30,128 nt of DNA from a virus: positions 1-30,128 of the IMG/VR virus record IMGVR_UViG_3300029905_000019; one strand, 5' to 3'. The notes under the pieces are model-generated. The model saw only the letters and a program-made list of their open reading frames with translations. It did not search any database and was not told the origin of the DNA. Position numbers and translations under genes: made by a program. Below, one piece after another: positions 791 to 24,080 of this stretch; position 1 is the stretch's first letter, and the number at the start of each line of letters is the position of its first letter.

Positions 791-828
791 GTTTATAAAA
801 AACAGTTTATTCAAATAATAAAATACAA

Positions 829-3241: not shown

Positions 3242-3261
3242 TTATACTATTGATAAGTTCA

Positions 3262-3292: not shown

Positions 3293-4386
3293 GTTATTTC
3301 AGTTTTATCTGATTGTTCTAAACTAAATGGCCTAATAGATATTGAATCTTTTGTATTAAATATCTTATCAAAAGATTTTATAATATTTTTCTGTACAGGT
3401 TGAATAACAGTTCTATTAAATAGTTTAAATGCATCTGCATATTCCTGCGAATTGAACCCTGTCGTTTGGTCAGGGTAGCCAATTAAATTAGGGGTGCATC
3501 TAAAAGCCACAAATAATTGAGATTTTGAACGTTCTGAAAGTGCCGTATATCTTTCATCAAAATCATCTTGTGATAAATCAGATACCGTTGCAGCATTATC
3601 AGCGTTTTCATTAAAAATTATCATTAGTCTACCTGCATTGTCTTTGCCGCTGAACTTTTCATTAATATTTTTTTCAATTTCTTCTTTTAAATTGTCGTCG
3701 GGAACACCGTTGTTCAAATTGATAATTTTACTTGTTAAAAAGTTATTATTAATTTCATTTAGATGAAACTCATTTATACTTTTTTCAATTTCTGCTGCAA
3801 TTACAGAACTTTCCCAAATTGGATTGCCATATGTAGTTATAGCGGTATTATCCTTGAAATAAAAAATACTTGTAGCATTTTCATCCCCAAATTGATATTT
3901 GGGATAAACTATATATTTAACCCTGCCATATGATTTTGACCAATCATCACTATAAAAAAATACGCTGTTATCTTCGTTGCTTCTCAATCTCAATATTGGT
4001 ATATGATATAATTCTGTGATATTACCTAAAAAGTCTTTAATAACCTGTATTGCAAAACTTCCAAATATCCAATAATCCAAAGATATTTTATCTATCAGGT
4101 CATCAATAGTTTCACCCTTTTCATTTATAGTGAAACTTAAAGACTGAATATTACAAATTACGCCGTTTCCCTTTGTATAATCACTGCAGGCATTTATGAT
4201 ACTTCCAAGTGTTGGTACTTTTTTATATAAAGAATATAAATAGTTTGGATATGCATTATCTTCACCCCAACTAATGAAGTCTTTGCCACTTATTTTTTTC
4301 TCTACGTTCTCAACAATATTTGTTGTTAGATATGGGTCTAATGCTGCAAATGCGACTTTTATATTACTTGTATTATTGTTTTCCAT
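3280..4386 (-). CDS. Portal protein (putative)
   Basis: 368-aa ORF. The N-terminal WGEDNAYPNYLYSLYKKVPTLGSIINACSDYTKGNG and the later FHLNEINNNFLTSKIINLNNG...GKDNAGRLMIIF...LFVAFRCTPNLIG follow the pattern I associate with small HK97-type portals. Confidence 0.6.
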   Translation of the reverse strand: MENNNTSNIKVAFAALDPYLTTNIVENVEKKISGKDFISWGEDNAYPNYLYSLYKKVPTLGSIINACSDYTKGNGVICNIQSLSFTINEKGETIDDLIDKISLDYWIFGSFAIQVIKDFLGNITELYHIPILRLRSNEDNSVFFYSDDWSKSYGRVKYIVYPKYQFGDENATSIFYFKDNTAITTYGNPIWESSVIAAEIEKSINEFHLNEINNNFLTSKIINLNNGVPDDNLKEEIEKNINEKFSGKDNAGRLMIIFNENADNAATVSDLSQDDFDERYTALSERSKSQLFVAFRCTPNLIGYPDQTTGFNSQEYADAFKLFNRTVIQPVQKNIIKSFDKIFNTKDSISIRPFSLEQSDKTEITRTE

Positions 4387-4780
4387 ATTGTATAAAATTT
4401 TGTGATTTATTATATGAAGTTGAATTTGAGGTATAGTTACCTATCCTTACTAATTCTGTGCATATTATATCAATTGGTTCTTGATATTCTGTATCTGAAC
4501 TAACCAATAAAATATTATCTTTATTTAGTAAAATATTGGTCTTACAAATAAGAATATATTTGTTAGTTGATATTGTACTTTTTTTAACATTATTTTGATT
4601 AATGACAATAGGTAAATTATCAGGATTTTCAATTAAATATAATTTATATTCTCCATCAGGTAATTTTGATACATCTATATCAAAAGAATAATATATACTA
4701 CTATCATCCGCTGTATTTTCAGTAGTATATGTATATATAGTTTTATCAACAGTATTTTGCAAAATGATTGAATATTGCAT
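4373..4780 (-). CDS. Hypothetical structural-module protein
   Basis: 135-aa ORF with a 14-nt overlap onto the portal start. Confidence 0.5.
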   Translation of the reverse strand: MQYSIILQNTVDKTIYTYTTENTADDSSIYYSFDIDVSKLPDGEYKLYLIENPDNLPIVINQNNVKKSTISTNKYILICKTNILLNKDNILLVSSDTEYQEPIDIICTELVRIGNYTSNSTSYNKSQNFIQYGKQ

Positions 4781-4833
4781 AAAGTTTAGTTTATTTTAAA
4801 TATAATTTAGGGTAAATATGTACCAAAATGACA

Positions 4834-6680: not shown

Positions 6681-6929
6681 TTATATCATTTTTTTAAGAT
6701 TTTCAGATTCTTTTCTTTCGAAATATTCTTTTTGCTCAGCAACATATTTATCATATTCTGCTTTATCAATTTCTCTAAAAATTGAAGTATCAAAATCCTT
6801 TGGACAATATGTAATGGTTGTTGCATAAAATGATTCAATATCATCACCTTCTCTATATTTGGTAATGTATTTATTTGTATCACTTTCTATTTTTATGAAT
6901 TTTAATTCATCGTTATTTGTTATTTTCAT
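6681..6929 (-). CDS. Small acidic hypothetical protein (fibre module)
   Basis: 82-aa ORF. The overlapping 6686..6883 ORF in another frame has a low-complexity Ile/Leu/Lys/Gln-rich composition and is taken as spurious. Confidence 0.5.
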   Translation of the reverse strand: MKITNNDELKFIKIESDTNKYITKYREGDDIESFYATTITYCPKDFDTSIFREIDKAEYDKYVAEQKEYFERKESENLKKMI

Positions 6930-6974
6930 ACTTATTTTTTTATTAAATATATTATTATTGATATTAGTATATTG

Positions 6975-7831: not shown

Positions 7832-8374
7832 TTATCCATTTATTTCAGTTAATGTATTATTAATATTGCCAATAGTCGCATTAATACTATTTATAGATGC
7901 GGCTATTACTTTGTTTTGTACTGGATTTTCAGAAGTAGTTGATAATTCAGAATCTACTGTAACAGTTGCATCACTTCCAGCTGGTCCTGTTGGTCCCATT
8001 GGTCCTTGTGGACCTGTATCACCTTTAGGTCCTGTTTCACCTTGTGGTCCTGTTTCACCTTGTGGTCCTGTTGGTCCTTGTGGTCCTTGTGGTCCTTGTG
8101 GTCCTGTAGGACCTACTGCGCCATCTTTACCATCTGCTCCAGCTGGTCCTGTTGGTCCCATTGGTCCTTGTGGTCCTTGTGGTCCTGTTTCACCTTGTGG
8201 TCCTGTTGGTCCCATTGGTCCCTGCGGTCCTGTTTCACCTTGAGGTCCCTGTGGACCTGTAATGCCTGATATTTGGCTAATTATTATATCATTATTTTCA
8301 TCAAGTCCAACAACATTTTTTAGTTGTTCACTTGGTGATATTGGTAATGTACTTAAATCTATGTAATTTGCCAT
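7832..8374 (-). CDS. Collagen-like tail fibre protein
   Basis: 180 aa with about 33 uninterrupted Gly-X-Y triplets ([19 protein letters not shown]...). Its stop is 2 nt from the start of the LRR fibre gene. Confidence 0.9.
7970..8266 (-). repeat. Gly-X-Y triplet-repeat coding region
   Basis: 9-nt periodic ggtcc(t/c)tgt/ggacc units on the plus strand. Confidence 0.9.
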
Positions 8375-8385: not shown

Positions 8386-8400
8386 TTTTAATAAAATATA
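8386..8400 (-). promoter_or_regulatory. Class-A late motif TTTTAATAAAATATA
   Basis: Exact 15-mer, with 15 nt between its core and the ATG at 8374. Confidence 0.55.
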
Positions 8401-8430
8401 AAAAAATAAACCGCAGTTTATTTGCGGTTT
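8401..8430 (-). terminator. Rho-independent terminator after 8458..8982
   Basis: 8-bp stem aaaccgca/tgcggttt (8408-8415/8423-8430) followed by a U-run on the minus strand. Confidence 0.7.
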
Positions 8431-8457: not shown

Positions 8458-8982
8458 TTATGCAATTATTCCTGCTAATACACTTTCATCAACCTCATAG
8501 GGGAACGAATCAGATTCATCAGTTAATTCAACGGTGTAGTTGTTTGAGTCACCTTTTGCAGTACCCGTATTTCCTGAACCGTTGGTCGCACTTACATAAT
8601 CATTGTATCCCAAATACCATAATTTGTTGTTGGAATCTCTTACAATTACAGCTAATTGACCTACTGCAAGTGCTGCAACTTCAATACGTTTTGCAGTTTC
8701 CATTTTCGTAAACACCAAGCTTAATACGGTGCTTACATAGTTAGTACCTGCAGTTGCGTCAACATTAAGCGTTGAAGTCATCGAACCCGTTTGTTTACGG
8801 AATTGATAGGTATGAAACTTTGCTTCAGCATTCATAGTAATAGCTGATATTATTCCATCGTCACCAACAGTAACAGATTCAACATCTTCATAGTTAGCTA
8901 TATAAGCTGCTCGTATTCCACCAATTGAACTTGAGCAATCATTAGTAATCCCTGAAAGTACTTGCAAACAGTTTGTTGCCAT
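8458..8982 (-). CDS. Putative major tail tube protein (alternative: head decoration protein)
   Basis: 174-aa ORF bracketed by its own late motif and a strong terminator, which suggests high expression. The pattern ...VIVRDSNNKLWYLGYNDYVSATNGSGNTGTAKGDSNNYTVEL resembles tail tube proteins. It sits just downstream of the capsid gene. Confidence 0.45.
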   Translation of the reverse strand: MATNCLQVLSGITNDCSSSIGGIRAAYIANYEDVESVTVGDDGIISAITMNAEAKFHTYQFRKQTGSMTSTLNVDATAGTNYVSTVLSLVFTKMETAKRIEVAALAVGQLAVIVRDSNNKLWYLGYNDYVSATNGSGNTGTAKGDSNNYTVELTDESDSFPYEVDESVLAGIIA

Positions 8983-9006: not shown

Positions 9007-9021
9007 TTTTAATAAAATATA
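9007..9021 (-). promoter_or_regulatory. Class-A late motif TTTTAATAAAATATA
   Basis: Exact 15-mer with the extended context tattcttattttaataaaatata, upstream of the ATG at 8982. Confidence 0.55.
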
Positions 9022-9102
9022 TTTAATTATAATTTTGTTTTATTCATATAAAAAATGTATTTTTAATAAGAATAAAATATTTATATATAAACTAAAATAA
9101 AT

Positions 9103-9795: not shown

Positions 9796-10716
9796 CTACT
9801 CGGTTGCAATCACACCTTTTACAACCTCATTTGGCCAGGCGATTTGCACTCCCGCTACGAACTCAATAGCTAATCTGAACTCATTAAAATCTTTGCTATA
9901 CCATAAATCAAATTTCTCTTCATCGTTCATCATATCGCAGCCATAGTAAAGGTTCATCGGGTCAGCGGCTACAATAGTGTTAGTGCCATTTAAACCATTA
10001 ACTGCTATAACTTTGGTGTTGGTACCCGGTAAAATAAACTCTTCTGAAGGCATACCATCAGCAGGATAATGATAGTAGTTTTTAGCAACCATCTCAACCA
10101 TAAAATTGCGGAATAAATCAGCTCCAACAAATATTACAGCTTTGTCTAATACTTTTTCAGGAATAGCCAAATAAACTTTTGTAATAGCATCATAAGCAGA
10201 AGTACCTGATGCGCTATCAGCTTCAACAACATCTTCGGCCTCACCTAAAATCTTAATTAAGCCATCAAACCATTTTAAATCATTTGCGGTTGCACCGGTG
10301 GCTTCAGTATCACCCTGCCAAATTAATTTCTCAATTTTTTCTTTTACTTTTTCAACAATTAAACTTGTAAAATCTTCCTCAAATGGTAATGTTTTTTGGC
10401 CTGCTGCTACTTTTACTTGATAACCTGTCCAATATTTTAAGAAGTTCTTATCGCAGAAAGATTGGTTAACTTTAATTGTGCCTGTAGTTAAAATACGCTG
10501 TGATAAAGTGGTAGTACCTGAATCTGTCCAACCGCAAGCGGAACCATCTTGTAACTCAACATCAGTAGCTAAAAGGTTTAAAGCGGCTTGATATTTAATA
10601 TCAGTCTGTAAGTTCATTAAGCTTGCAGATTTAGCTGATAAAACAGCTTCTTTAATCAAAGGAAGTCTGCGTTGCTCAACATATAAAGGCAGACTTGTCA
10701 TTACGGGATTTGCCAT
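9796..10716 (-). CDS. Major capsid protein
   Basis: 306-aa ORF directly after the protease and scaffold genes. LIWQGDTEATG...WFDGLIKIL and the C-terminal FRLAIEFVAGVQIAWP are typical of HK97-fold capsid families. It has its own late motif and is flanked by terminators. Confidence 0.75.
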   Translation of the reverse strand: MANPVMTSLPLYVEQRRLPLIKEAVLSAKSASLMNLQTDIKYQAALNLLATDVELQDGSACGWTDSGTTTLSQRILTTGTIKVNQSFCDKNFLKYWTGYQVKVAAGQKTLPFEEDFTSLIVEKVKEKIEKLIWQGDTEATGATANDLKWFDGLIKILGEAEDVVEADSASGTSAYDAITKVYLAIPEKVLDKAVIFVGADLFRNFMVEMVAKNYYHYPADGMPSEEFILPGTNTKVIAVNGLNGTNTIVAADPMNLYYGCDMMNDEEKFDLWYSKDFNEFRLAIEFVAGVQIAWPNEVVKGVIATE

Positions 10717-10741: not shown

Positions 10742-10756
10742 TTTTAATAAAATATA
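10742..10756 (-). promoter_or_regulatory. Class-A late motif TTTTAATAAAATATA
   Basis: Exact 15-mer with context tattcttatttttaataaaatata. It lies between the terminator at 10789-10818 and the ATG at 10716. Confidence 0.6.
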
Positions 10757-10788
10757 GGCTATTAATAACTTGTTAATTTTTCATAAAA

Positions 10789-10845: not shown

Positions 10846-11421
10846 TTATTTGAAATGCTGTCTGAACATCTCTAATTTTTTATCACCTGCGGTTTCAACT
10901 GTGACAGTCTTTTTAATTTCATCTTCAGCAGGTTTTGCAGCAGACATTTTTTCAATTTTTGAAAGTCTTTCATCAGCTTCTTTACGGCTTTCACCAATTT
11001 TATTTAGAACTGCATCAACTATTTTATAAAGCTCATTAACTTCTTTGCGTAATTCCTCAATAGCTTTATTTACATCTTCTTTGCTGCCATCAGGATTTTC
11101 TACCATTGGTTCTGCATCTTCTGCGCAAGCTTGTTTATCAGTTTCTGCACATTTGGTTTTTTCAGCTGCATCAACTTCTGCAGCAGCATCTACAATACTT
11201 TCAACTTTGCCATCTTTAACAACAATAGTTTTTCCATCTTCCGTTGCATATTCTCCATCTTCTGCAGGTTTTCTTTCACCATCTACATCAACATAGACAC
11301 TATATCCCGCTTTTAAATCTTCTTCAGAATCCCATACTAAAACAGCTTTATCAGTTTTTACTGCGCCACATTCTACTAATAAATTAGCTAATCTTTTTCT
11401 AATTTTATCTAATTTGGTCAT
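10846..11421 (-). CDS. Scaffolding protein (putative)
   Basis: 191 aa, highly acidic, Ala/Glu/Lys/Asp-rich with helical character, positioned between the protease and the capsid gene. Confidence 0.6.
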   Translation of the reverse strand: MTKLDKIRKRLANLLVECGAVKTDKAVLVWDSEEDLKAGYSVYVDVDGERKPAEDGEYATEDGKTIVVKDGKVESIVDAAAEVDAAEKTKCAETDKQACAEDAEPMVENPDGSKEDVNKAIEELRKEVNELYKIVDAVLNKIGESRKEADERLSKIEKMSAAKPAEDEIKKTVTVETAGDKKLEMFRQHFK

Positions 11422-11431: not shown

Positions 11432-11446
11432 TTTTAATAAAATATA
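11432..11446 (-). promoter_or_regulatory. Class-A late motif TTTTAATAAAATATA
   Basis: Exact 15-mer, with 14 nt between its core and the ATG at 11421. Confidence 0.55.
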
Positions 11447-11453
11447 TTATTTA

Positions 11454-12065
11454 TTATTTTTGTTTTAGGTAGTTAATTTGATTTTGGATGATTGTTAGAT
11501 ATTCTTCAATATCAGTATCTTCAATATTATCATTTTCTTTTAATGCTAAATCAAAATAGCCCTCAAACGAAATACCTATATTATCACCATTTTCAACTTT
11601 TTCCCATATTTTAGGATTTTCTACATCAAACACCCCAAATAAACTACCATTTTCAATATCTTCAAATCCAACAGGATTAATTCCTTTATCAGTATCTTTA
11701 ATGAATATTTCCAAATAATATACACCATCTAATTTATTGGATGATTGGTGTTCAATATTATATCTGTTTAGTTTACCATCTTCAAGCATTTTTTTAGCTA
11801 TTTTTTCAATGGTTTGTCTGTCATAAATTATATAATATTCACCCAAATCTGAATCTTTGCGGTAAATTGGAAAATTACAACGGCAAATAGGGGCTATTAC
11901 TCTATGATGAACATTATCTAATACACTATAATATTTTTGTTTATCTTGTTTTGAAAACTTCATTAGATTAACTTCCATCGCAGGTTTTTCAACAAAACTT
12001 ATACAGTCTATACCTTGTGTTTCTTCATTAAGTTGTGCAAAATATATTGGTAATCTGTTATCCAT
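11454..12065 (-). CDS. XkdF-like prohead serine protease (putative)
   Basis: 203 aa. ISFVEKPAMEVNLMKF and VIAPICRCNFPIYRKDSDLGEYYIIYDRQTIEKIAKKM...NIEHQ follow the XkdF-type pattern. It is upstream of the scaffold and capsid genes. Confidence 0.55.
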   Translation of the reverse strand: MDNRLPIYFAQLNEETQGIDCISFVEKPAMEVNLMKFSKQDKQKYYSVLDNVHHRVIAPICRCNFPIYRKDSDLGEYYIIYDRQTIEKIAKKMLEDGKLNRYNIEHQSSNKLDGVYYLEIFIKDTDKGINPVGFEDIENGSLFGVFDVENPKIWEKVENGDNIGISFEGYFDLALKENDNIEDTDIEEYLTIIQNQINYLKQK

Positions 12066-12076: not shown

Positions 12077-12091
12077 TTTTAATAAAATATA
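12077..12091 (-). promoter_or_regulatory. Class-A late motif TTTTAATAAAATATA
   Basis: Exact 15-mer, with 15 nt between its core and the ATG at 12065. Confidence 0.55.
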
Positions 12092-12099
12092 ATTATTTA

Positions 12100-14187
12100 T
12101 TAGAATGTAGCATTAGTTTCAACAACACTTACTTTATTTTGAACATTTGTAATGTCACTTTCAACTACATATACGCGCTGTGAATTATTTAATTCTGTTG
12201 TTTCAGAATCTGACAATAAATTACGGGTATATTCAACAGGTAGATTTCGAGATATATCTAACGATGGTGTTACAGCTGCAGCAGTAGATGAACTACCTGT
12301 ACCTGTTTCAGTATTTATTGACATAATACTTTTGACATTTGCAAGTCCTGTTGCAATTGCAGCGGCCATATAAACGGCACCTAGTGCAGGTGACCATACA
12401 CCACCGGGGTTAAAAGCTGCTCGATATGCTTCTTCTGCGGAAGCCCAAGTATTAATTAGGGTACTTGCAACGGCTGCTGCTTTACCTGCTTTTGTGTTTT
12501 CTCCAATTAAAGTAGCTGTTGCTGAAAGTATAGTTGATAAGCCATTATATGTGGCTTTTCGAGCTGCCAATTTTTTTTGCTCGCATTGTATTTCGTTATC
12601 TCGTTCTTTATTTTGTAATTCAATTATTTTATTTGTATGTTCATTTTCTATTTCCTCCAATCTATTCATAAGTTCTACTTTAACATCAAAATAAAGCGAC
12701 TCATCATTTATTCTTTCGTTTAATATTTCTTTTTGTTGAGAATTAATATATTGTTCAAGTTCAATTAATTTATCGTAATATGATTTTTGTAAATTATATT
12801 TATCTTCAGGCCTAACATATCCATTACTTTCCAATGAAAACATTTTATTAGCATAATCCGTTTCATTAAAAGATTTATATGATTCATAAAAATCACTTAA
12901 CATTGATAAATGCGTATCAATATTCATTAACATAATTTCTTTTTGTGACTCAATATTATCTTTTAGATTTTCATTTTGAATTTTAGCTATATCATCGTTA
13001 TATTCTTTAATTAGTCCTGTAATATCTTGTCCCGCCTGTCTGAATAATTCTTTTTCTTGCTCAAACTGTTTTGTACGCAATTCAATTTGCGTCATACCCT
13101 GTTCTTCAATACGTTTTTTTATGGCTTCAATTTGTTTAGTATCAATAGCGGAACTATTATCATTTAATATGTCATTAGTTTTTTGTATTTCTTTGTTAAA
13201 TGTTTTAGCAGCTTTAGCCCCTTCTAAATATCCTTTATTTATTAAGTTTTGATATTGAAAACTTAATTTAGTAACAGTTTCATTAGTTTCTCCAAGTTGT
13301 TTATTTATTTGAATGTATTCATCACTTTCTTTTTTACCTTGTTGTAATAATTCATTTCTTATATCTAATAATTTAGATGATTGTTCTTTAGCCTCTTCTA
13401 ATTTTTTTGATATTGATTCTAATTCATTATTTCGTAAAGTTTCTTGATATTCTTTTGTAGCTTTATCAATCGCCTCAGTATTATTTCTCGCTTCTGCTAA
13501 TGCTTCGTTATATTTTTTAAGAGCTTTTAGATTTTGCTGTTGTAAATAAAAATCTAAACCATCTAATGCATTCTTCAAACGTTCAACAGCCGCTGTTGCC
13601 TCATCTTGTGGTGAAGTATCTTTCCATAGCTGCGATATTTTGTCCCAATTTGCGATAACTTCGCCAATTGCAACTACTAATATTCCTAAACCTGTGGCAA
13701 GTAATGCTTTTTTAATACCACTTAACCCCACAATAAATCCTTTTACCGCAGTTGTAGCGCTTCTGAATTGAATACTTGCAGCTTTAATATCTTTGCTTAA
13801 ACCTTCTAAACCCTGTAATCCCTGTACTAACGCGATAACACCCTGTAGTCTTACCATAGTTTTTTCAACGGTTTCTGATTCACTGCCAAAAATAACCATA
13901 GCTCCCTGTACTGCACCAAAACCACTTGCAAGACCTGTTGCAAGACGATTTACAGTTGCTATTTGTTCACCTAAATCAGCGGCTGAATAACGTACAAGTT
14001 CATTCATATCTCGCATAGCGAATGTTCTATCTGCTAACGCTCCTAATACTTGATTGTATTCTTGGCTACTTTCATCGAGATTTAATAATTCATCTTTTAA
14101 TAGCTTTATCTCTTTTCGTAACTGTTTTACTGAAGTATTTGAATCGCCTGCGTCAACGCTCAATATTTTAACAATTTCTTCTGTCAT
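12100..14187 (-). CDS. Tape measure protein
   Basis: 695 aa with a long coiled-coil centre. There are Gly/Ala-rich hydrophobic segments near the N-terminus (GLASGFGAVQGAMVIFG, GLGILVVAIGEVIANW) and the C-terminus (ALGAVYMAAAIATGLANV). Confidence 0.75.
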   Translation of the reverse strand: MTEEIVKILSVDAGDSNTSVKQLRKEIKLLKDELLNLDESSQEYNQVLGALADRTFAMRDMNELVRYSAADLGEQIATVNRLATGLASGFGAVQGAMVIFGSESETVEKTMVRLQGVIALVQGLQGLEGLSKDIKAASIQFRSATTAVKGFIVGLSGIKKALLATGLGILVVAIGEVIANWDKISQLWKDTSPQDEATAAVERLKNALDGLDFYLQQQNLKALKKYNEALAEARNNTEAIDKATKEYQETLRNNELESISKKLEEAKEQSSKLLDIRNELLQQGKKESDEYIQINKQLGETNETVTKLSFQYQNLINKGYLEGAKAAKTFNKEIQKTNDILNDNSSAIDTKQIEAIKKRIEEQGMTQIELRTKQFEQEKELFRQAGQDITGLIKEYNDDIAKIQNENLKDNIESQKEIMLMNIDTHLSMLSDFYESYKSFNETDYANKMFSLESNGYVRPEDKYNLQKSYYDKLIELEQYINSQQKEILNERINDESLYFDVKVELMNRLEEIENEHTNKIIELQNKERDNEIQCEQKKLAARKATYNGLSTILSATATLIGENTKAGKAAAVASTLINTWASAEEAYRAAFNPGGVWSPALGAVYMAAAIATGLANVKSIMSINTETGTGSSSTAAAVTPSLDISRNLPVEYTRNLLSDSETTELNNSQRVYVVESDITNVQNKVSVVETNATF

Positions 14188-14196: not shown

Positions 14197-14213
14197 TTTT
14201 ATAAAAAATATAT
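14197..14213 (-). promoter_or_regulatory. Class-B late motif TTTTATAAAAAATATAT
   Basis: 17-mer identical to 17111-17127, lying 9 nt from the ATG at 14187. Confidence 0.5.
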
Positions 14214-14232
14214 TGATAAATGGTTGAGTATT

Positions 14233-14290: not shown

Positions 14291-17104
14291 TTAAATTGTT
14301 TGGCTTTGCAAATAGCTATTCATATCTATTACTTTTATGAACTCGCATTGTACGGTTTTATTTGAATTAATATCATAATTATTAATTTTATTTAAAATCC
14401 AAATGCAATTATTGAAATAATAAAAGTTTTTTAATAAATCTGAATTAACCTTAAAATTACTTAAGTTAACATAACAAGTAATTTTTTTATTATTAACGTT
14501 AAATTGGTCTGTTAAATATGATTCCCAAAACTTATGGTATATAGTAGAAGTATTATCATAATTTAAATCTTGTACATATAATTCTAAGGGTTGTTCAAAG
14601 TCATAACTATATTTTATTACATTATTTTCAGATATATAACGCGAAAAATGCGGAAGATAATTTAACTTGATAGCTATTGTACTACCTGCGGCATTTTTTG
14701 AGTTTTCGCAAAACAAATAGCAGGGTCCGCCATTTAGTTTATACATTTCATTTACATCATCACTTAATTGATATGGTATTTGTCTGCCATCGCTATCTAA
14801 CAAGTGTACATTGCCATCAAATAAAATTAAGCTATTACTAATGTCTGAAAGATTTTTTACATTATTTTCAAGTGTAAAAAAAACAGGTTTATCAAACAAA
14901 TCATAGCCATTTCGCGTATATTCAGTAGTTTTAGATAAATCAATTATATTTGCGCCTGAAATATCTATACTTGTACTATTATCCCCATTAAATAATTGAT
15001 ATTTTAAATTATCTACTAAAAATGTGGGGCAATTATAATAATTACTATTAAAAAAGTTTCTATAATATACACTATTATCTGTTAGTTGTATAACATTTTC
15101 ATAAATATTATCAGATAATATATCATTGGTTTCATTATTAAAATTATACCCTGTTTTTAACCTTTTTTGACCATATGAAACACCATAGTCATTATTATAT
15201 TTTTTTATCAAGTAATTTTCTTCATCTTCATCATATTTTAATCTTAAAAACTTACTTGAAAATAACAATGGCTGTATTTTCATTTCTTGCGAATAGTCAA
15301 TTAAGTTATTTATATCTTTTACAGTATTATTAAAATAGTTATTTTTTGATAGTATTTTAATTTTTTTAGGATTTTGACTATCATATTCATAATTCAAATT
15401 AAACATTTTGGTAAAACTTAATAAGTAATCCAAAGGTGTATTTTCATTTTTTAATAATTTATCTTTTGTTAAACGCGAGCCACTACCTAGATTATCATTA
15501 TATTTTAATGTAATATTAGAAGTATCAAGTTCAATTATGGCATTACCTAAAACTGAATTATTAATATACTCATTATATGTTATATCTTGCGCCGCATTTA
15601 ATCCGCGGGCCACATCATTAAAATGTGCTATTATCTGAATATATAATTTGTTGGATACTTTAATATCTTCCAAACTTATGTTAAATGTATTATTTCCATT
15701 TTCAGAAAAATAATAAAAATCTCCATTTTCAATTTTTTTAAAATATCCCTTAAATACATTATTAGCCGGTGTATAAATTATATTAACCAAAGAGTTCAAC
15801 GTCGCATAGTTATTGGCGATTATATTGCTATTTTCGTCTAGTATATTTATAGAAATAGCTACCGCATTATTACCCCAAATTGGATAAGGAGCATTTTTTA
15901 CGTAATATCCATTATATAATATATCAGCATTATTTGCTATTTCTAAATTGGTTTCAGGAACAAATTTTACCGAGAAATTAAATGATAGCGACATTGAATA
16001 TTGATTAATTGAAAGCGTTGCCAAATCAACTTCGTATGTTTTTGTATTGTAATTAAATATATCATTATTATTAACACCCAAATAAAAAGTTTCTGAAACG
16101 TCAGGATAACCAACACTATAATCAAAAGGAGGTACTTTTATTAATTGGGTTTCAGAAGTTTGATTTTCATTTTCAATATAATTTGTAGAAAAAGTTGGTA
16201 ATAATATATAGCTTTTACTAAAATACGGATTATTTGTATTAAAAAAATCGCTATCTAATTCAATGTCATATCCACCATTATTTTCAGGATTGCATATTGC
16301 ACTAATAAACTTATCTAATTTTAATGCGGGGCGCTGTTTATAACTTCGCAAATCTCTTATCTGCCATTCATCGTACTCCTTATTTAATTCTCCTAATGCA
16401 TATCCATTAACTGTAGTATATGTAGTATCATTTTCAGTAATAGAAGTTGTTGGAAATAATAAACTACTATTGGTATTTATTAATACTTTATTATTATCAA
16501 AATCTTCATATATGCCATTATAACTTGGAACAAATGTAATTGTATTATATATTGTATTTGTTCCGTCATTTATATGCTGCCAACAATTATTTACAAAATC
16601 TTTGTCAAGTGTGAAATCCATTTCAGATTCTGATGGTAATGTATTGCCGCTTTCATCAACAATTCCATATGTTAAATCTTTTAAGAACTTTTCATTACCA
16701 TCATCATCATAAGCCAAATTATAAAAAAAGTCTCCTAAACCTCCATATAACGTTGTTTCATAAATTATAACTTTATTTTTGATTGATATACTATTTAATT
16801 GCATATATCCCGTTTCAACTAACTCAGAATTATTAAAAAGTTGAAAAGGTGTTCTTTTCGATGGGTCAAAATATGCACCTAATATATAATTTTCATCATA
16901 TAGCAGATTTTTATCTAAATTATATATTTCACCAAATATTTTATTATTATTTTTGGTAGATGGTATTGTTATATTTTTTGTAAAGCTATTTTTAACTGCA
17001 GCAGGACTGCTTGTATCTTCAAGCTGATAAGTAAACGGTATTGATATTTCATCTGAAAAATCAACTAAATTATTTTCAATATACAACTTTATATCTTGTT
17101 TCAT
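14291..17104 (-). CDS. Large tail/baseplate structural protein
   Basis: 937-aa Asn/Tyr/Ser-rich ORF. The N-terminal IKLYIENNLVDFSDEISIPFTYQLEDTSSPAAVKNSFTKNITIPSTKNNNKIFG resembles the N-termini of phage tail tip or distal tail proteins. Confidence 0.55.
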   Translation of the reverse strand: MKQDIKLYIENNLVDFSDEISIPFTYQLEDTSSPAAVKNSFTKNITIPSTKNNNKIFGEIYNLDKNLLYDENYILGAYFDPSKRTPFQLFNNSELVETGYMQLNSISIKNKVIIYETTLYGGLGDFFYNLAYDDDGNEKFLKDLTYGIVDESGNTLPSESEMDFTLDKDFVNNCWQHINDGTNTIYNTITFVPSYNGIYEDFDNNKVLINTNSSLLFPTTSITENDTTYTTVNGYALGELNKEYDEWQIRDLRSYKQRPALKLDKFISAICNPENNGGYDIELDSDFFNTNNPYFSKSYILLPTFSTNYIENENQTSETQLIKVPPFDYSVGYPDVSETFYLGVNNNDIFNYNTKTYEVDLATLSINQYSMSLSFNFSVKFVPETNLEIANNADILYNGYYVKNAPYPIWGNNAVAISINILDENSNIIANNYATLNSLVNIIYTPANNVFKGYFKKIENGDFYYFSENGNNTFNISLEDIKVSNKLYIQIIAHFNDVARGLNAAQDITYNEYINNSVLGNAIIELDTSNITLKYNDNLGSGSRLTKDKLLKNENTPLDYLLSFTKMFNLNYEYDSQNPKKIKILSKNNYFNNTVKDINNLIDYSQEMKIQPLLFSSKFLRLKYDEDEENYLIKKYNNDYGVSYGQKRLKTGYNFNNETNDILSDNIYENVIQLTDNSVYYRNFFNSNYYNCPTFLVDNLKYQLFNGDNSTSIDISGANIIDLSKTTEYTRNGYDLFDKPVFFTLENNVKNLSDISNSLILFDGNVHLLDSDGRQIPYQLSDDVNEMYKLNGGPCYLFCENSKNAAGSTIAIKLNYLPHFSRYISENNVIKYSYDFEQPLELYVQDLNYDNTSTIYHKFWESYLTDQFNVNNKKITCYVNLSNFKVNSDLLKNFYYFNNCIWILNKINNYDINSNKTVQCEFIKVIDMNSYLQSQTI

Positions 17105-17110
17105 ATATTT

Positions 17111-17127
17111 TTTTATAAAAAATATAT
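17111..17127 (-). promoter_or_regulatory. Class-B late motif TTTTATAAAAAATATAT
   Basis: Identical 17-mer to 14197-14213, lying 6 nt from the ATG at 17104. Confidence 0.5.
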
Positions 17128-17160
17128 AAAAAAAAAGGTAAGTAATTAAATACTTACCTT
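17127..17160 (-). terminator. Rho-independent terminator overlapping the stop of 17154..19313
   Basis: 10-bp stem aaggtaagta/tacttacctt (17135-17144/17151-17160) followed by a U-run on the minus strand. Confidence 0.7.
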
Positions 17161-19313
17161 CTTATTTTACCTTGTGATTCTTCTACATTAATTTCATAGT
17201 AGAACTTTTTGCGTTGTTGATTGGTAAATGTCTTATATTCAAAACTTGTATCAGTAATATTTACAGGTTTTATAACATTAGTTGATAAATTATGCAAATA
17301 AACTTCATTACTTTCAATAAGATTATACATTCTACTTGCTTGTTCATCTGTTAAATAGCTTGTATAAAACTTATAACTTGAAGTAATTATATTTAAATAA
17401 TTCTTTTTTTCAAACTCTATAGTAGTATTATTAAACGATTTATTATAAAAGTTTTGTGATATATCATCTGTCTTAATATTATTACCCGTTATTAATAACG
17501 AATCCCAACCACCCGATGCATTTAAATAATACAAACAATATTCCGCACAACTATCTACTATTTTATATGTATCACCATTTATTTCAATAGTATCAAAATC
17601 AGGGTATTGAAATAAAGTATTATCAATTAATAGATATTCACCCAAATCAGATATTGGTGTACTTAATAATATTTGTTCATTGCCATTTTTGCTATTTTTT
17701 AATTTATATGTTAGTGTAACGGGCGTATCTAAATCATATTGCTGAAATAAAGTATATAAGAAATATTGTCTACGGTCAATTTCATATTTTACAGGGTGAC
17801 TTATCACAATATTGTTATACATATTAATTTTGCTATTCAAATCTGAAAAATCGTAATCATAACTATTATAAAAAACATAGCTTCCGATTAATGAATTACC
17901 TGCAGTTGTTGTTAAATCAAACTCTGTTGCATAGTTATTTAGTTTGAATATATTTGTTGAATATCCGTTAAATGGGAAATCATCAGGTAAATTACTATTC
18001 AAAAAATTATAACATACTTTATTTAAATAAAATGAAATATTATTTGAATCGGGATATTTATATGATTTTCCACTATATATAATATTATTATTTACACTAA
18101 TATTATATTCTAAAAAGCTTTCATTTGACGCATAATTAACAAGTACATCTTGTACAATCGGAAATATATTATATGCTAATTGTTGTACAGTAAGCGTATC
18201 AGATACTTCATTACCTTCAAAATCAGTTCCACTTAATGTTATGATACCTGTTCTGATTGTGTCAGTAAAGTTTTTAGAACAAGTATATGAAACTATATTA
18301 GCCGAATATGATGCATTTAACCAATCAGAATCACTTGAAGCAGTTAAAGTAGTTGCAATGTTCATTAATAAAACGCTCGATTGGCCACTTGTGACATCAA
18401 AATTAATAATTTGAAAATCATTTTGTATATTTATACTACCTGTGTTTCCGGCGGCTTGCGTTATTGGGTAATTTATACTGTAATTATCGTATGTAATTAT
18501 TATATTACCACTTCTTTCTGTACTTCCTGAGTTTTTATTTACTTCAATTATTATATTAGCGCTTTGATTATTTATTTTGCTTACTGCAATACTATTAACA
18601 AATGAAGTTGCCGCAGAATCAGCAACAGCTGTAAAATTGCTCAAATTGGTAATATTTGTTGATACTGTAACTGTCTTTTGAGATTGCGAACTCGGAAATG
18701 ATAATGAAGTTGGATTGCAAGTAATAATCCTATTGCCCGCAATACTAATAACATATCCTAATGTTATATTAGTCCCATCAAGATAAAATAATTTAATTGA
18801 AGCCGATGCATTAATATCATCAGGTAAATTATTATTATTGATACCTAAATTAAATGATATACTATTATTTGCAATAATTAAATTATTATAATAAAGTAAA
18901 TTATTAGAATTATTAAATGTTATTTGAGCATTTGAGATTGTCTTATTGGCTACATAATATATAGTATAATTACCTCCCGACGCAGGCGCAGATATGGAAG
19001 TAGGAAAAAATCCATTTGAAATAGGTAATACCGAAACTTCAAAATCTACTGTTAAGGGCCTTAGGTCACTTCCCATAGAAAAACTGCCTATGTAATTTTT
19101 TACTGAATAACCTGAATAACTATTGCTTGTAACATTAATTGTACAGCTTGTTGCAGTTTGATTAACAATATTTCCTGATAATTGCCCATCTGCAGGAGAA
19201 AATGATAAATCACCCCAATTACCATTACCTCCAATATCATTAGTATAATTTATCGCTTGCGAGCTATTATTATTTCCAAATATTAATTTCTTAGGTGTAA
19301 ATCCTGTTGCCAT
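17154..19313 (-). CDS. Tail protein with N-terminal BACON-like Ig repeats
   Basis: 719 aa. Repeats end in ...NKNSGSTERSGNIIITYDNYSINYPITQAAG and ...SDSDWLNASYS...NFTDTIRTGIITLSG...TLTVQQLA, matching the BACON signature (W-L, N-x-x-x-R, I-T-V-x-Q). Confidence 0.55.
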   Translation of the reverse strand: MATGFTPKKLIFGNNNSSQAINYTNDIGGNGNWGDLSFSPADGQLSGNIVNQTATSCTINVTSNSYSGYSVKNYIGSFSMGSDLRPLTVDFEVSVLPISNGFFPTSISAPASGGNYTIYYVANKTISNAQITFNNSNNLLYYNNLIIANNSISFNLGINNNNLPDDINASASIKLFYLDGTNITLGYVISIAGNRIITCNPTSLSFPSSQSQKTVTVSTNITNLSNFTAVADSAATSFVNSIAVSKINNQSANIIIEVNKNSGSTERSGNIIITYDNYSINYPITQAAGNTGSINIQNDFQIINFDVTSGQSSVLLMNIATTLTASSDSDWLNASYSANIVSYTCSKNFTDTIRTGIITLSGTDFEGNEVSDTLTVQQLAYNIFPIVQDVLVNYASNESFLEYNISVNNNIIYSGKSYKYPDSNNISFYLNKVCYNFLNSNLPDDFPFNGYSTNIFKLNNYATEFDLTTTAGNSLIGSYVFYNSYDYDFSDLNSKINMYNNIVISHPVKYEIDRRQYFLYTLFQQYDLDTPVTLTYKLKNSKNGNEQILLSTPISDLGEYLLIDNTLFQYPDFDTIEINGDTYKIVDSCAEYCLYYLNASGGWDSLLITGNNIKTDDISQNFYNKSFNNTTIEFEKKNYLNIITSSYKFYTSYLTDEQASRMYNLIESNEVYLHNLSTNVIKPVNITDTSFEYKTFTNQQRKKFYYEINVEESQGKIRR

Positions 19314-19320: not shown

Positions 19321-19335
19321 TTTTAATAAAATATA
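19321..19335 (-). promoter_or_regulatory. Class-A late motif TTTTAATAAAATATA
   Basis: Exact 15-mer, with 11 nt between its core and the ATG at 19313. Confidence 0.55.
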
Positions 19336-19340
19336 TTATA

Positions 19341-19368
19341 AAAAAAAGCGGTTATTGTAAACCGCTTT
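19341..19368 (-). terminator. Rho-independent terminator overlapping the stop of 19352..19858
   Basis: 9-bp stem aaagcggtt/aaccgcttt (19345-19353/19360-19368) followed by a U-run on the minus strand. Confidence 0.7.
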
Positions 19369-20632: not shown

Positions 20633-21907
20633 TTATACTATTAAATAATTATAATTACCCCTTGTATTTTTTTCATAATAAGCCTGTAACGCAAGCATTA
20701 AAGCAATACACATATCATCATTTCCGCCTTGAGGCGCATTATATGTAATGTTACCCGTTTTAGAATTGTATTTGGCTTCGTAGAAACTCAATTCTGCCTG
20801 CTGTTGTTCATCATCAAGTATTTGTATTTTTCTTTGTTCAAAGTATACTTGAAGCTTATTAACAATATCAGTCTTACTTTTGTTAGTTGTTACAAACTCA
20901 TTAACTATTCCCTTTTTAGGTAATTGGTGACGTAACATATTCACCATCGGTTTACCCATACCATTATTTTCACATAAAATATTTTTGATTTTAGGCAAAT
21001 ATGGTTTCAGATATTCAACAATATATTTAATTTGTTCTGTTGTGCTTTTATTTCTAAAATGTAATAGAAATACTTGCTGTTTAAACTCATTCAGAGCCGT
21101 CACAACAGTTTCATCACCTCCAACACCGCTGCCCCAATCAACTCCCACAAATAATTTTTCGTATTTTTCATTAATATTATTTGATATACATTCTTTGAAA
21201 TGCCCAAAAACAACACTATCACTATCCAAAAAGTCACCTAAATATTCTGTAATGAACTGATTTCTTGGTAATGTTTGTCTATACATTTCTAATGTTTCAG
21301 GCGATAATAGGGCACTTGTATCATATTTACATAAATCATAGCTTGTAATAGTATCTTTATATTTATCCATTAGCCCATAATTATATGTTTCATAGAAAAA
21401 TCCTATTCTAAACTTTGGAGTTGATACCATTAAAATAGGACATCGCCAAACATCAGTAGATGGTTTTATTATAGAATATACCTCATCGGGTATATATGCT
21501 GCTTCGTCTATGCATAGTATACCTGAAAAGGTATAACCTCTTAAATTGTCTCTTTGTTCTGCGGATTTGAATAATATGCTGCTGCCGTTTATAAACTCTA
21601 TTTCAAGCAGACTATCATTCTTTTTTCTTAATACGCCTGTTTGCTCAACACTTTTAAGAATCTGTTTATATATCTTCCTTGATTGATTAAGTGTTGGAGA
21701 TAAACAGCCATTTACAGTATCACTATAGTTTATGGCAAATCTTAATAGTTCATTGATAATTATATATGATTTACCAATTTGTCGCTTCGCTTTAACACAA
21801 TGAATGTGCCCACTATTTTTACCAAACTTGGATAATCCATTGTGTACTGCTAACTGCCATTCAAAAGGCGTATATCCAACAAATGTTTTTTCATTATTTT
21901 TACTCAT
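20633..21907 (-). CDS. terL: Terminase large subunit
   Basis: 424 aa with Walker A-like KAKRQIGKS, Walker B ILCIDEAAYI and coupling motif MVSTP. The nuclease-domain acidic residues appear in VGVDWGSGVGGDETV and GGNDDMCIALMLA. Confidence 0.9.
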   Translation of the reverse strand: MSKNNEKTFVGYTPFEWQLAVHNGLSKFGKNSGHIHCVKAKRQIGKSYIIINELLRFAINYSDTVNGCLSPTLNQSRKIYKQILKSVEQTGVLRKKNDSLLEIEFINGSSILFKSAEQRDNLRGYTFSGILCIDEAAYIPDEVYSIIKPSTDVWRCPILMVSTPKFRIGFFYETYNYGLMDKYKDTITSYDLCKYDTSALLSPETLEMYRQTLPRNQFITEYLGDFLDSDSVVFGHFKECISNNINEKYEKLFVGVDWGSGVGGDETVVTALNEFKQQVFLLHFRNKSTTEQIKYIVEYLKPYLPKIKNILCENNGMGKPMVNMLRHQLPKKGIVNEFVTTNKSKTDIVNKLQVYFEQRKIQILDDEQQQAELSFYEAKYNSKTGNITYNAPQGGNDDMCIALMLALQAYYEKNTRGNYNYLIV

Positions 21908-22340: not shown

Positions 22341-22341
22341 T

Positions 22342-22635
22342 TTACCCCTTTTTTGTACGTTTTTTATTGGCATAATCTTTATTATTTTTTTCTTTATTAT
22401 TTTCAATTTCAGCTTTATCTATAAAATAAAACTTACCAATAGCTTTTGCAAACTTTAAAATTGAACTTGAACAATGCTTGCATAAATTATAATTAGGTTC
22501 AATTTTTTTATAGATTTTCAGTAATTCATCAATCGCACAATTTGCAAATGGTAAACAATAATTACTGTTAATCGCTCTTCGCAAATTATCTTCAAACTTT
22601 GAAATATATTCAAATTCTTCTTTTGTAAAATACAT
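22342..22635 (-). CDS. Hypothetical Cys-containing protein
   Basis: 97-aa ORF with four Cys (including CKHC) and a basic C-terminal tail. Confidence 0.5.
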   Translation of the reverse strand: MYFTKEEFEYISKFEDNLRRAINSNYCLPFANCAIDELLKIYKKIEPNYNLCKHCSSSILKFAKAIGKFYFIDKAEIENNKEKNNKDYANKKRTKKG

Positions 22636-22656
22636 ATTTATTTATTTTAAATATAG

Positions 22657-22995
22657 TTATTTATTTAACAGTTTATATAAACTTGTTATCAGCCAATTAA
22701 ATAAGTCTTGAACTAACATTATTAAGTTGCCTAACTGATTTGTTAAACTTGCTAATATGCAAACAACCAATATATTTAATATACTAAATTGTCCAACACA
22801 TATTAGAAAGATTAAGCCTATCCAAAAAGTCATACATAAACTGCAATCCAACGGTTTTAAACTGTATTCTTGATATGGCTTATTTTTTCCAAACACCCAT
22901 TTCCATATCAATCTTTTAATATTATTAACAACACCGCTAATATCAATGATAAACACTATTATCAAGGTTAGCATAATCAAATTTAGATATATCAT
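22657..22995 (-). CDS. Small integral membrane protein (DUF1360-like CxxC...W motif)
   Basis: 112 aa with about three hydrophobic helices. KPLDCSLCMTFWIGLIF resembles the DUF1360 signature. Confidence 0.45.
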   Translation of the reverse strand: MIYLNLIMLTLIIVFIIDISGVVNNIKRLIWKWVFGKNKPYQEYSLKPLDCSLCMTFWIGLIFLICVGQFSILNILVVCILASLTNQLGNLIMLVQDLFNWLITSLYKLLNK

Positions 22996-23263
22996 TTTCT
23001 TCTAATTTTTTTATTATATTATATATTTCTTCCCTGATTCGTTTAATCTCTTTATATATTATAGTATGACTTATACCCAATTCTTTACCAACTTTTCTTA
23101 AACTACCTAATTCAGCGTATAACAAGATTATTATATGGTCACTTTGTGAAAGCTGTTTAATAGCTTGTTTGGTAAATATCAGCCTATTGTCATCTTCATC
23201 AAATATATCTAACTCTTTGAAATTATATTCATTTATAATTCTTTTGTAAATATCATTATTCAT
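22943..23263 (-). CDS. Sigma-70 region-4-like HTH protein (C-terminal half of a split ECF-type sigma factor)
   Basis: 106 aa. LSQSDHIIILLYAELGSLRKVGKELGISHTIIYKEIKRIREEI aligns position by position with ECF sigma region 4 (compare RpoE LPEDLRMAITLRELDGLSYEEIAAIMDCPVGTVRSRIFRAREAI). Confidence 0.6.
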   Translation of the reverse strand: MNNDIYKRIINEYNFKELDIFDEDDNRLIFTKQAIKQLSQSDHIIILLYAELGSLRKVGKELGISHTIIYKEIKRIREEIYNIIKKLEENDISKFDYANLDNSVYH

Positions 23264-23564
23264 CCTCTATTTCTGTATTAATCTTTTTATTTTCATCAAT
23301 TAATTTATAATACTTCTTATATTTAGTATAAAATGGACTATTTTTACTAAAGTATTGGTTTTGAATAATTCTTACAATAAAGAACTTCAATTGATTATTA
23401 TTATACAGTTTTATTATTTTATTTTCATCATACTCAAGCAATACCAAATATATTTCCTGTAGTAAGTCATCTTTATCATTAGCTTTAATTCCCATATTTT
23501 TTATAAGTTCTTCAATTAACTTATTTCTTGCAATTTCTTCTATTATATCATTTTTGTTACACAT
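23256..23564 (-). CDS. Sigma-70 region-2-like protein (N-terminal half of a split ECF-type sigma factor)
   Basis: 102 aa. DKDDLLQEIYLVLLEY...LKFFIVRIIQNQYF matches ECF region 2 (compare RpoE DVPDVVQEAFIKAYRAL...FYTWLYRIAVNTAKNYL). Its stop overlaps the next ORF's start by 8 nt. Confidence 0.55.
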   Translation of the reverse strand: MCNKNDIIEEIARNKLIEELIKNMGIKANDKDDLLQEIYLVLLEYDENKIIKLYNNNQLKFFIVRIIQNQYFSKNSPFYTKYKKYYKLIDENKKINTEIEDE

Positions 23565-23998
23565 ACTGCATCACTTACTTTTAAAGCATTTTTATTTTCA
23601 ATATATTTTTCACTTTCAACTACTGTATATTTATTATATACCTTTTCACCTAACTTTTCTAACTGATTGTCCTTTGACAAATCCCATATAATTATCCAAC
23701 CATCATCAAAACTATTCAGATATAATGGTTTATACTTAGAATCTTCCATTAGATATTTTTCCTTATTTTTTTCAAGTATATAATTATCATATCTTGTGTG
23801 TGGCATTCGTCTATGTTTACATTCAACCGCATAATAATATTCAGTACCATTTTTTGTAGTAGCTGTGAAATAAATGTCTATATGACCATAATCTGTTATA
23901 TGTTGGTCAATATTCAAATCGCATTTCCTGAATAAATATTTAAGCGTTGGTAATATCTTTTCCTGTCCAATTTTATCTGCTTCATTAAACTTATTCAT
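23543..23998 (-). CDS. PD-(D/E)XK-family nuclease (putative)
   Basis: 151 aa with GHIDIYF...(13 aa)...YAVECKHR, a D...ExK motif, plus an upstream Glu (GQEK). Confidence 0.5.
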   Translation of the reverse strand: MNKFNEADKIGQEKILPTLKYLFRKCDLNIDQHITDYGHIDIYFTATTKNGTEYYYAVECKHRRMPHTRYDNYILEKNKEKYLMEDSKYKPLYLNSFDDGWIIIWDLSKDNQLEKLGEKVYNKYTVVESEKYIENKNALKVSDAVCVTKMI

Positions 23999-24006
23999 AA
24001 TGTCTA

Positions 24007-24025
24007 TTTATATATTTTTATTTAT
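24007..24025 (-). promoter_or_regulatory. 19-nt motif tttatatatttttatttat (copy 1), upstream of 23543..23998
   Basis: Identical 19-mer at 27097-27115. Both copies begin within 10 nt of a minus-strand ATG. Confidence 0.45.
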
Positions 24026-24060
24026 ATATAAATATCACCTAACTTTCAAAAAGTTATATT

Positions 24061-24075
24061 TTTTATAAAAAATAT
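24061..24075 (+). promoter_or_regulatory. Class-B-like motif TTTTATAAAAAATAT just upstream of the plus-strand lipoprotein gene
   Basis: Same 15-mer as at 14197 and 17111, lying 5 nt before the ATG at 24081. Its orientation relative to the gene is opposite to the late genes, so its significance is uncertain. Confidence 0.25.
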
Positions 24076-24080
24076 TTATT

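Follow-up and report, generated by a model that had tools for sequence, protein, structure and literature searches.

Can the two domains of an extracytoplasmic function (ECF) sigma factor be produced as separate proteins from two overlapping phage genes? Nearly every sigma factor is a single chain, and the question is raised by two small open reading frames (ORFs), here called ORF1 and ORF2, in a viral sequence of 30,128 nucleotides (nt) with a GC content of 27% (IMG/VR virus record IMGVR_UViG_3300029905_000019, positions 1 to 30,128; this whole stretch is referred to as the window; it is apparently a complete contig, as the longest contig with ORF1 has this same length). A reading of the DNA alone, referred to here as the original prediction, took the pair for an ECF-type sigma factor cut between its region 2 domain (sigma2, on ORF1) and its region 4 domain (sigma4, on ORF2). 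The core of that reading stands, as both halves align colinearly to single fused proteins, and with a probability of roughly 0.7 we regard ORF1 and ORF2 as the sigma2-like and sigma4-like parts of a strongly diverged ECF-like sigma factor, the gene of which is naturally broken in the inter-domain linker and the function of which, as a sigma factor, we infer. Both ORFs, their 8-nt overlap and the +1 frame of ORF2 are exactly as first described, and the peptides quoted at the time are present (Table 1).

The relatives in which the two proteins are joined carry most of the argument. An exhaustive profile search with ORF1 yields 1,928 cluster representatives (E ≤ 1e-3), and the best 150 of these have a bimodal length distribution, with about 120 short forms (83-142 amino acids (aa)) and 29 long forms (170-237 aa). 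The long forms consist of an ORF1-like domain at the N-terminus, a variable and often acidic linker and an ORF2-like helix-turn-helix (HTH) at the C-terminus. One of them, P0086 (192 aa, its ORF seen on two independent contigs), matches the NCBIfam sigma70-ECF model TIGR02937 with 43.2 bits, just over the curated cutoff of 42.9 (E 3e-11), its residues 15-184 covering model positions 6-164 of 165; altogether, TIGR02937 is matched by 16 of the 29 fused members and a Bacteroidota sigma-70 subfamily model by five. ORF1 aligns with P0086 (residues 2-92, 52% identity, E 4e-30), as does ORF2 (residues 138-183, 58% identity, E 2e-13), which also matches the C-terminus of the fused protein P0196 (52% identity, E 5e-16). 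A virtual concatenation of ORF1 and ORF2 aligns with TIGR02937 nearly from end to end (residues 24-184 with model positions 21-163, E 9e-6), as does the concatenation from a relative, L001 (E 5e-9), both below the curated cutoff. The family is known only from uncultured phages: tblastn of ORF1 or P0086 detects no homologue among deposited phage genomes (n = 50,697), and megablast of the region finds no match there. A scan of bacterial genomes for prophages returned one contig of a metagenome-assembled genome, binned as Acutalibacteraceae and uninformative for the host, which is probably a member of the Bacteroidota, judging only from the integrase type (Arm-DNA-bind_5) and the BACON domains of relatives.

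Taken on its own, ORF2 is, by sequence and predicted structure, the sigma4-like HTH half, and the region-4 HTH first assigned to it is borne out by profile and fold matches alike. It aligns with positions 108-163 of the 165 in TIGR02937 (E 1.4e-4, 21.5 bits) and with PHROG 1740, ‘RNA polymerase sigma factor’ (E 1.3e-5). Its structural model (predicted local distance difference test (pLDDT) score of 76 overall and 87-90 in the core) has ECF sigma4 domains as its best Foldseek matches in the PDB (3hug, 2h27, 2o8x, 3vep and 5fgm; probability 0.99-1.00, TMt 0.69-0.76), the proteins matched being Mycobacterium tuberculosis SigL (root-mean-square deviation 1.6 Å), region 4 of Escherichia coli sigmaE on -35 DNA, SigC, SigD and SigR. 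Relatives of ORF2 carry PF08281, and the HTH of regions 4.1-4.2 expected of a sigma4 domain is thus recognizable in its fold, in its TIGR02937 alignment and through these relatives. The ORF2 family comprises 1,334 related clusters, the best 120 of which are all 93-125 aa long. In the family alignment the recognition-helix residues S65, H66, Y70 and K71 are invariant, and a peptide at the N-terminus is conserved as well ((E/D)Y-x-[PF]-x3-I-[FWM]-x-[ED]-D), with Y13 and K32 invariant and I20 nearly so.

For ORF1, the region-2 assignment of the original prediction fails in direct searches of the protein alone and succeeds through fused relatives, short relatives and structural neighbours; ORF1 is sigma2-like by virtue of these intermediate sequences. 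The sigma2 domain of group 4 (ECF) factors is reached via P0086, the N-terminal domain of which aligns with TIGR02937 from position 6. When short ORF1-type relatives are scanned singly, Sigma70_r2 (PF04542) is the commonest Pfam family (22/119, best E 8.9e-6) and TIGR02937 the commonest NCBIfam match (14/119). ORF1 itself weakly matches PHROG 1740 at profile positions 69-123, colinear with ORF2 at 153-219. Its AlphaFold2 model (pLDDT 89.6, six helices) finds phage proteins of 160-232 aa as the top 12 matches in BFVD (probability 0.91-1.00, TMq 0.56-0.80), and the matches fall on the N-terminal domains of phage sigma factors, some of them named as sigma-70 region 2, RpoE or sigma24 homologues. 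Sigma factors also make up 7 of the 15 PDB matches of the ORF1 model at E ≤ 10 (Foldseek), which is suggestive only, as none is significant. An hhalign comparison of the ORF1 family with an approximate E. coli RpoE sequence aligned only the DxxQE stretch, with a probability below 1%, and is not evidence.

Several results weigh against a sigma factor. ORF1 alone has no significant match in Pfam or NCBIfam, the ORF1-family profile matches no PDB sequence, and the Foldseek search of the PDB with the ORF1 model gives nothing significant (E ≥ 4.5, template modelling (TM) score about 0.4). The only above-threshold Pfam match of ORF2 is the generic HTH_50 (27.6 bits) and not Sigma70_r4; Sigma70_r2 is found in only 1 of the 29 fused members, Pfam being insensitive here. 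A sequence search of the PDB with P0086 aligns only sigma4 of SigW, and a search with the fused profile places a TyrR-type HTH first (E 0.0017), slightly ahead of SigW. The ORF1+ORF2 concatenation reaches 25.4 bits, and as sigma factors the window proteins stay below the curated cutoffs (42.9 bits for TIGR02937; Pfam gathering scores), which P0086 passes. Much of this would be expected if there were no sigma factor here at all and ORF2 were an ordinary HTH regulator or activator (TyrR/Fis-like HTH_50), with ORF1 a separate RNA-polymerase-binding or decoy protein (e.g. a sigma2-like appropriator or an anti-sigma-like factor) and the adjacency of the two reflecting co-regulation only; that two relatives, L001 and L003, already have a complete small sigma factor just upstream of the pair would also suit such an arrangement. 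We nevertheless consider it improbable, because many single polypeptides unite the two domains in this order and match the sigma70-ECF model over its full length, because the two genes are neighbours and overlap without exception across deep divergence, and because the fold of ORF2 is closest to ECF sigma4 domains. On sequence and models together, the ORF1/ORF2 family is best described as a very diverged ECF-like lineage.

The split nature of the gene is a separate matter. An ECF sigma factor is one polypeptide; ORF1 and ORF2 occupy different reading frames, and each has a start and a stop codon of its own. The same layout is found in 10 of the 10 inspected relatives in which both genes are readable (L001, L003, L005, L006, L009, L010, L011, L013, L014 and L016), and overlap length and frame are listed in Table 1 for ten junctions, those of the window and of the nine relatives other than L009. 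That fused homologues exist might suggest a normal single sigma gene disrupted in the window by a 1-nt assembly or sequencing error or by a recent pseudogenizing frameshift. The error is excluded because the split is conserved over ten independent loci, from different samples and with different junction sequences, and the chance of either event is negligible when the 47 close homologues of ORF1, with identities down to 51%, all measure 75-117 aa, the best ORF2 relatives are uniformly short, and the family alignments of ORF1 and ORF2 place both halves under clear purifying selection. The observations that the original prediction had named as speaking against it are therefore not found, since related loci are split too and the window is no lone exception. 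The split had also been called unusual, which is right with regard to sigma factors generally and not within this family, where it is the majority state.

Could the ribosome join the two ORFs? A programmed +1 frameshift at the overlap would yield one fused sigma factor, and ORF2 is indeed in the +1 frame in nine of the ten measured junctions; in the window, a GAGG resembling a Shine-Dalgarno (SD) sequence lies a few nucleotides before the stop, in a superficially prfB-like manner. The ORF2 ATG lies 5 nt before the ORF1 TAA, and a TAG in the ORF2 frame lies 3 nt 5' of this ATG, leaving a frameshift window of only 8 nt; the GAGG abuts the ATG with no spacer, is not placed as a Shine-Dalgarno sequence and codes for Glu-Asp of ORF1. 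Every ORF2 starts with its own ATG, an ORF2-frame stop is found 0-3 nt before it in the window, L003, L005 and L013 (shift windows of only 8-34 nt), the overlaps differ in length, L005 uses the other frame, and the junctions have no slippery sequence in common. Bacteroidota, moreover, make little use of SD pairing. A frameshift product is, on these grounds, very unlikely, and we retain two separately translated halves.

Split and fused states are interleaved in the family. In a rough neighbour-joining tree there is one large fused clade, the window's own clade is entirely split, and isolated fused forms (P0086, P0196, P0206, P0152, P0129 and P0174) are nested among split ones, implying at least eight changes of state, a count that is only indicative given the crudeness of the tree. 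One sister pair locates the break: the halves of split L013 correspond to residues 2-90 and 124-208 of fused P0196, which places the break in the variable linker (about residues 91-123 of P0196), just N-terminal to the conserved ORF2 peptide. The one exception to the two-ORF layout is a distant relative (L012:534-1225), in which an ORF1 homologue with an in-frame stop is followed by a GIY-YIG-like ORF (homing-endonuclease type) where ORF2 is expected, which may represent a mobile-element insertion at the sigma2/sigma4 junction.

ORF1 and ORF2 lie between two further small genes, ORF0 and ORF3, and since no terminator-like site was found in 22300-24200, ORF0-ORF1-ORF2-ORF3 looks like one transcription unit. 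The original prediction placed the pair just upstream of the terminase and late genes, which holds: the large terminase (20633..21907), a tape-measure protein, a structural protein and the portal are encoded downstream on the same strand. It had also suggested that two proteins could give the phage two-input control of late transcription, for which we find no support; ORF1 and ORF2 should rather be co-expressed, because the genes overlap, in the window and in every relative, with no terminator between them.

A candidate target for the split sigma factor is a motif repeated before the late genes. The extended form TATATTTT(A/T)T(T/A)AAAA has 19 matches with at most one mismatch, against 1.9 expected, and none of 100 shuffles has as many; the majority are on the late-gene strand. 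In 11 of 11 aligned sites an invariant AC, usually within AAC, is found exactly 15 nt upstream of the TATATTTT box, and AC-N15-TATATTT gives 17 matches against 2.5 expected (again reached by 0 of 100 shuffles), 14 of them on the minus strand, which is the late-gene strand. The full bipartite form, (A/T)AC-N15-TATATTTT(A/T)T(T/A)AAAA, lies 6-25 nt 5' of most late start codons (an AAC-N15-TATATTTTATTAAAA version is found, for example, in window 19300-19360) and often directly follows or overlaps the terminator hairpin of the preceding gene, making a repeated terminator-promoter cassette. The leaders implied by its position would be very short, which is unusual. L006/L026, the AT-rich relative nearest to the window, carries the motif at homologous positions too, one of them equivalent to the first copy after ORF3. 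A generic sigma-70 promoter scan did not rise above shuffles in this 27% GC DNA. An AAC core typifies ECF -35 elements, and a sigma4-type reader would fit the motif because of this resemblance; it is plausible, on circumstantial grounds, that the split sigma factor reads it.

The split sigma factor could also be real and act elsewhere, with (A/T)AC-N15-TATATTTT being read by the host primary sigma factor or another phage factor, or serving at the RNA level as a translation or processing signal. The Bacteroidota -7 box has the consensus TAnnTTTG, which TATATTTT resembles, so that a host sigma factor could read it; the motif ends very close to the start codons; and L027, the sigma4 recognition helix of which hardly differs, has a GATATTTA-type element in place of AC-N15-TATATTT. 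These three points speak against the split sigma factor as reader. We still think another reader somewhat unlikely, as an invariant AC at a constant 15 nt in DNA this rich in AT agrees with a bipartite promoter whose -35 core is an ECF-like AAC, as the motif comes after terminator hairpins and is confined to the strand of the late genes, and as it is absent from the upstream region of the sigma operon itself. That upstream region has another element, GATATTTAT, seen at window 24000-24045 (-), L001:3495-3531, L003:3500-3540, L005:3470-3501 and L006:3530-3563, which phages of this group may use as a promoter element of early or host type. A similar (A)TGATATTTA is also found 5' of late genes in L027. 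A T-rich variant of the late motif is a perfect AT palindrome, TATATTTTTTATAAAAAATATA, and matches on both strands (14193-14212, 17104-17126 and 24055-24074); one of these copies falls in the divergent stretch that separates the sigma operon from the plus-strand genes 24081-25044.

In the model that we propose for the split sigma factor, coupled translation would supply ORF1 and ORF2 in roughly equal amounts, ORF1 would dock on the clamp helices of beta-prime and ORF2 on the beta flap of the RNA polymerase of the host (probably one of the Bacteroidota), and together they would form a non-covalent two-subunit sigma factor. That the two subunits would be needed jointly and touch each other is favoured indirectly, by their invariable adjacency and by the fused orthologues. 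ORF2 would read the AAC box, ORF1 would read or melt the TATATTTT box, and the polymerase would be redirected to late promoters before the packaging, head and tail genes. As the upstream region of the operon lacks the late element, a cascade (host sigma factor, then split sigma factor, then late genes) is suggested rather than autoregulation. Where ECF holoenzyme structures have been solved, the linker runs through the cleft of the active site and the channel by which RNA exits. It is conceivable, if doubtful, that the sigma2-sigma4 linker need not be continuous and that the N-terminal peptide of ORF2 acts in trans as linker or ‘sigma finger’, or else docks ORF1.

Table 1. Coordinates of the sigma gene pair, its operon and the late motifs in the window, with the junctions and ORF3 homologues of relatives.
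Feature	Position	Strand	Size or overlap	Remarks
ORF1	23256..23564	(-)	102 aa	sigma2-like half (predicted): equivalent of regions 2.1-2.4 and first part of linker
ORF2	22943..23263	(-)	106 aa	N-terminal linker peptide, then predicted sigma4-like HTH domain (residues ~26-87)
ORF1/ORF2 overlap	23256..23263	(-)	8 nt	ATGAATAA; ORF2 start inside ORF1 stop region, +1 frame
ORF0	23543..23998	(-)	151 aa	first operon gene; 22-nt overlap with ORF1
ORF3	22657..22995	(-)	~105-112 aa	small, hydrophobic, probably membrane protein; conserved CxxC; 3' of ORF2
Operon upstream region	23999..24080	(-)		GATATTTAT element common to relatives; without late AC-N15 form
First late-type motif (AC-N15-TATATTT)	22649..22672	(-)		just after ORF3, upstream of 22342..22635
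Late motif	19329..19352	(-)		upstream of 17154..19313; overlaps terminator hairpin
Late motif	17120..17143	(-)		upstream of 14291..17104
Late motif	14206..14229	(-)		upstream of 12100..14187 (tape measure)
Late motif	12085..12108	(-)		upstream of 11454..12065
Late motif	11440..11463	(-)		upstream of 10846..11421
Late motif	10750..10773	(-)		upstream of 9796..10716 (virion structural protein)
Late motif	9015..9038	(-)		upstream of 8458..8982
Late motif	8394..8417	(-)		upstream of 7832..8374; overlaps terminator hairpin
Late motif	6945..6968	(-)		upstream of 6681..6929
Late motif, variant	4798..4821	(-)		upstream of 4373..4780
Late motif	3235..3258	(-)		upstream of 2603..3220
Late motif	783..806	(-)		upstream of 303..764
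Late motif	28201-28224	(-)		
Window junction			overlap 8 nt	ORF2 frame +1
L006 junction			overlap 8 nt	ORF2 frame +1
L014 junction			overlap 8 nt	ORF2 frame +1
L013 junction			overlap 11 nt	ORF2 frame +1
L016 junction			overlap 11 nt	ORF2 frame +1
L003 junction			overlap 14 nt	ORF2 frame +1
L001 junction			overlap 20 nt	ORF2 frame +1
L011 junction			overlap 23 nt	ORF2 frame +1
L010 junction			overlap 32 nt	ORF2 frame +1
L005 junction			overlap 34 nt	ORF2 frame +2 (other frame)
ORF3 homologue	L005:4584-4919			directly 3' of sigma genes
ORF3 homologue	L006:4564-4899			directly 3' of sigma genes
ORF3 homologue	L013:2576-2905			directly 3' of sigma genes
ORF3 homologue	L007:1226-1555			directly 3' of sigma genes

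Among the neighbouring genes, a conserved ORF3 comes immediately after the sigma genes, whether these are split or fused. Its alignment has the invariant residues D18, S20, G21, K47, P48, C51, C54 and W58 (D-x-S-G; K-P-x-x-C-x-x-C-x-x-x-W), and it has no family match in Pfam or PHROGs, belongs to no anti-sigma family recognized there and is missing the His of HxxxCxxC; from its position, an anti-sigma-like or regulatory partner is possible. As annotated, ORF3 begins 53 nt inside ORF2, so that translation may in fact start from an internal Met. ORF0 has no family match in Pfam, PHROGs or the PDB. It is homologous to ORF0 of L005 (E 1e-10) and similar by eye to that of L006, and a guess that it is a PD-(D/E)xK nuclease, based on a D...ECK motif, found no support from Pfam, PHROGs, the PDB or the DUF559 protein of L011. 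In L001 (3532-4023) and L003 (3541-4032) the ORF0 slot holds a complete 163-aa ECF-like sigma factor (TIGR02937 over its full length, E 2.4e-5), to which the 151-169-aa protein in the same slot of the window, L005 and L006 is unrelated. Some relatives may thus carry one whole and one split sigma factor in tandem; a paralogous relationship between the 163-aa sigma factor of L001 and the split family was considered and dropped, the profile comparison giving no significant match. Further upstream, the plus-strand genes 24081-24560 and 24586-25044 interrupt an otherwise minus-strand genome where relatives have an integrase, and encode one lipoprotein-like ORF with a Cys-containing signal peptide and one HNH endonuclease (PHROG 59, E 6e-42). 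No integrase turned up in the examined parts of the window, not all ORFs of which were searched for one.

Sigma functions divided between two proteins have been described before. To our knowledge, SigO-RsoA of Bacillus subtilis is the only characterized cellular two-subunit sigma factor. It consists of SigO (sigma4) and RsoA (sigma2), formerly YvrI-YvrHa, and is ECF-like and hard to classify (PMC8103513, PMC7826278). The arrangement of SigO-RsoA, in which sigma2 and sigma4 functions reside on separate polypeptides from one operon that act together, is matched by ORF1/ORF2 in having a sigma2-like and a sigma4-like module on separate polypeptides of one operon; the likeness drawn here is one of architecture. 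Whereas SigO-RsoA is a cellular pair from a single described Bacillus system, ORF1/ORF2 are phage-borne and represented by well over 1,000 sequence clusters. The gene order also differs, being sigma4 then sigma2 in the Bacillus pair (as the operon name yvrI-yvrHa implies) and sigma2 then sigma4, as in an unbroken gene, in the phage pair, the genes of which, unlike those of SigO-RsoA, overlap and have close fused orthologues.

Compared with canonical group 4 ECF factors (E. coli sigmaE, B. subtilis SigW and M. tuberculosis SigL), the family has the same sigma2-linker-sigma4 plan without sigma1.1 or sigma3, an ORF2 fold nearest to ECF sigma4, fused members that match TIGR02937 and a candidate promoter with an AAC box. 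It differs in lacking a covalent link between the ORF1 and ORF2 domains, in its strong sequence divergence, with the window proteins scoring below curated cutoffs, in a candidate -10-like box that is AT-rich (TATATTTT) and not of the CGT type of ECF promoters, and in having no recognizable anti-sigma factor, a common though not universal companion of ECF factors, beside the pair (ORF3 having no family match).

The gp55 and gp33 proteins of phage T4, which the original prediction cited as a precedent, have also been termed a ‘split sigma’ (10.1101/2025.01.04.631326, 10.1101/2024.09.12.612765). Here too a phage shares late-promoter sigma functions between two small RNA-polymerase-binding proteins, and the comparison is apt to that extent; it is a looser analogue, SigO-RsoA being closer. 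T4 gp33 is not known to be a sigma4 homologue or to read a -35 element, and the T4 system needs the gp45 sliding clamp, whereas ORF2 has a full predicted sigma4 HTH fold with an invariant recognition helix, and nothing indicates clamp dependence. In synthetic biology, ECF sigma factors have been severed between sigma2 and sigma4 to build AND gates, and the term ‘split ECF’ is in use (PMC7090010). A literature search found no paper on a split sigma factor in this kind of phage. The engineered halves are reportedly re-ligated by inteins, in contrast to the natural ORF1/ORF2, which have no intein and are presumably held together non-covalently.

What is new is therefore a widespread phage-borne form of a two-piece sigma factor, the principle of two sigma subunits being known already: a large family of uncultured phages routinely encodes an ECF-like sigma factor as two overlapping genes, with fused and split orthologues interleaved on the tree. 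For annotation, this means that pairs of stand-alone ‘HTH_50’ or hypothetical genes of about 100 aa that precede the terminase genes of phages of this kind should be named sigma halves. The family also offers a defined pair of small proteins with a candidate cognate promoter, usable in Bacteroidota-type systems, and, for synthetic biology, naturally evolved split-sigma parts. Above all, it provides a natural test of whether initiation needs the covalent sigma2-sigma4 linkage and the threading of the linker through RNA polymerase; if the linker function is indeed supplied in trans, the repeated splitting and fusion of this gene would amount to a natural experiment on linker connectivity in initiation and promoter escape.

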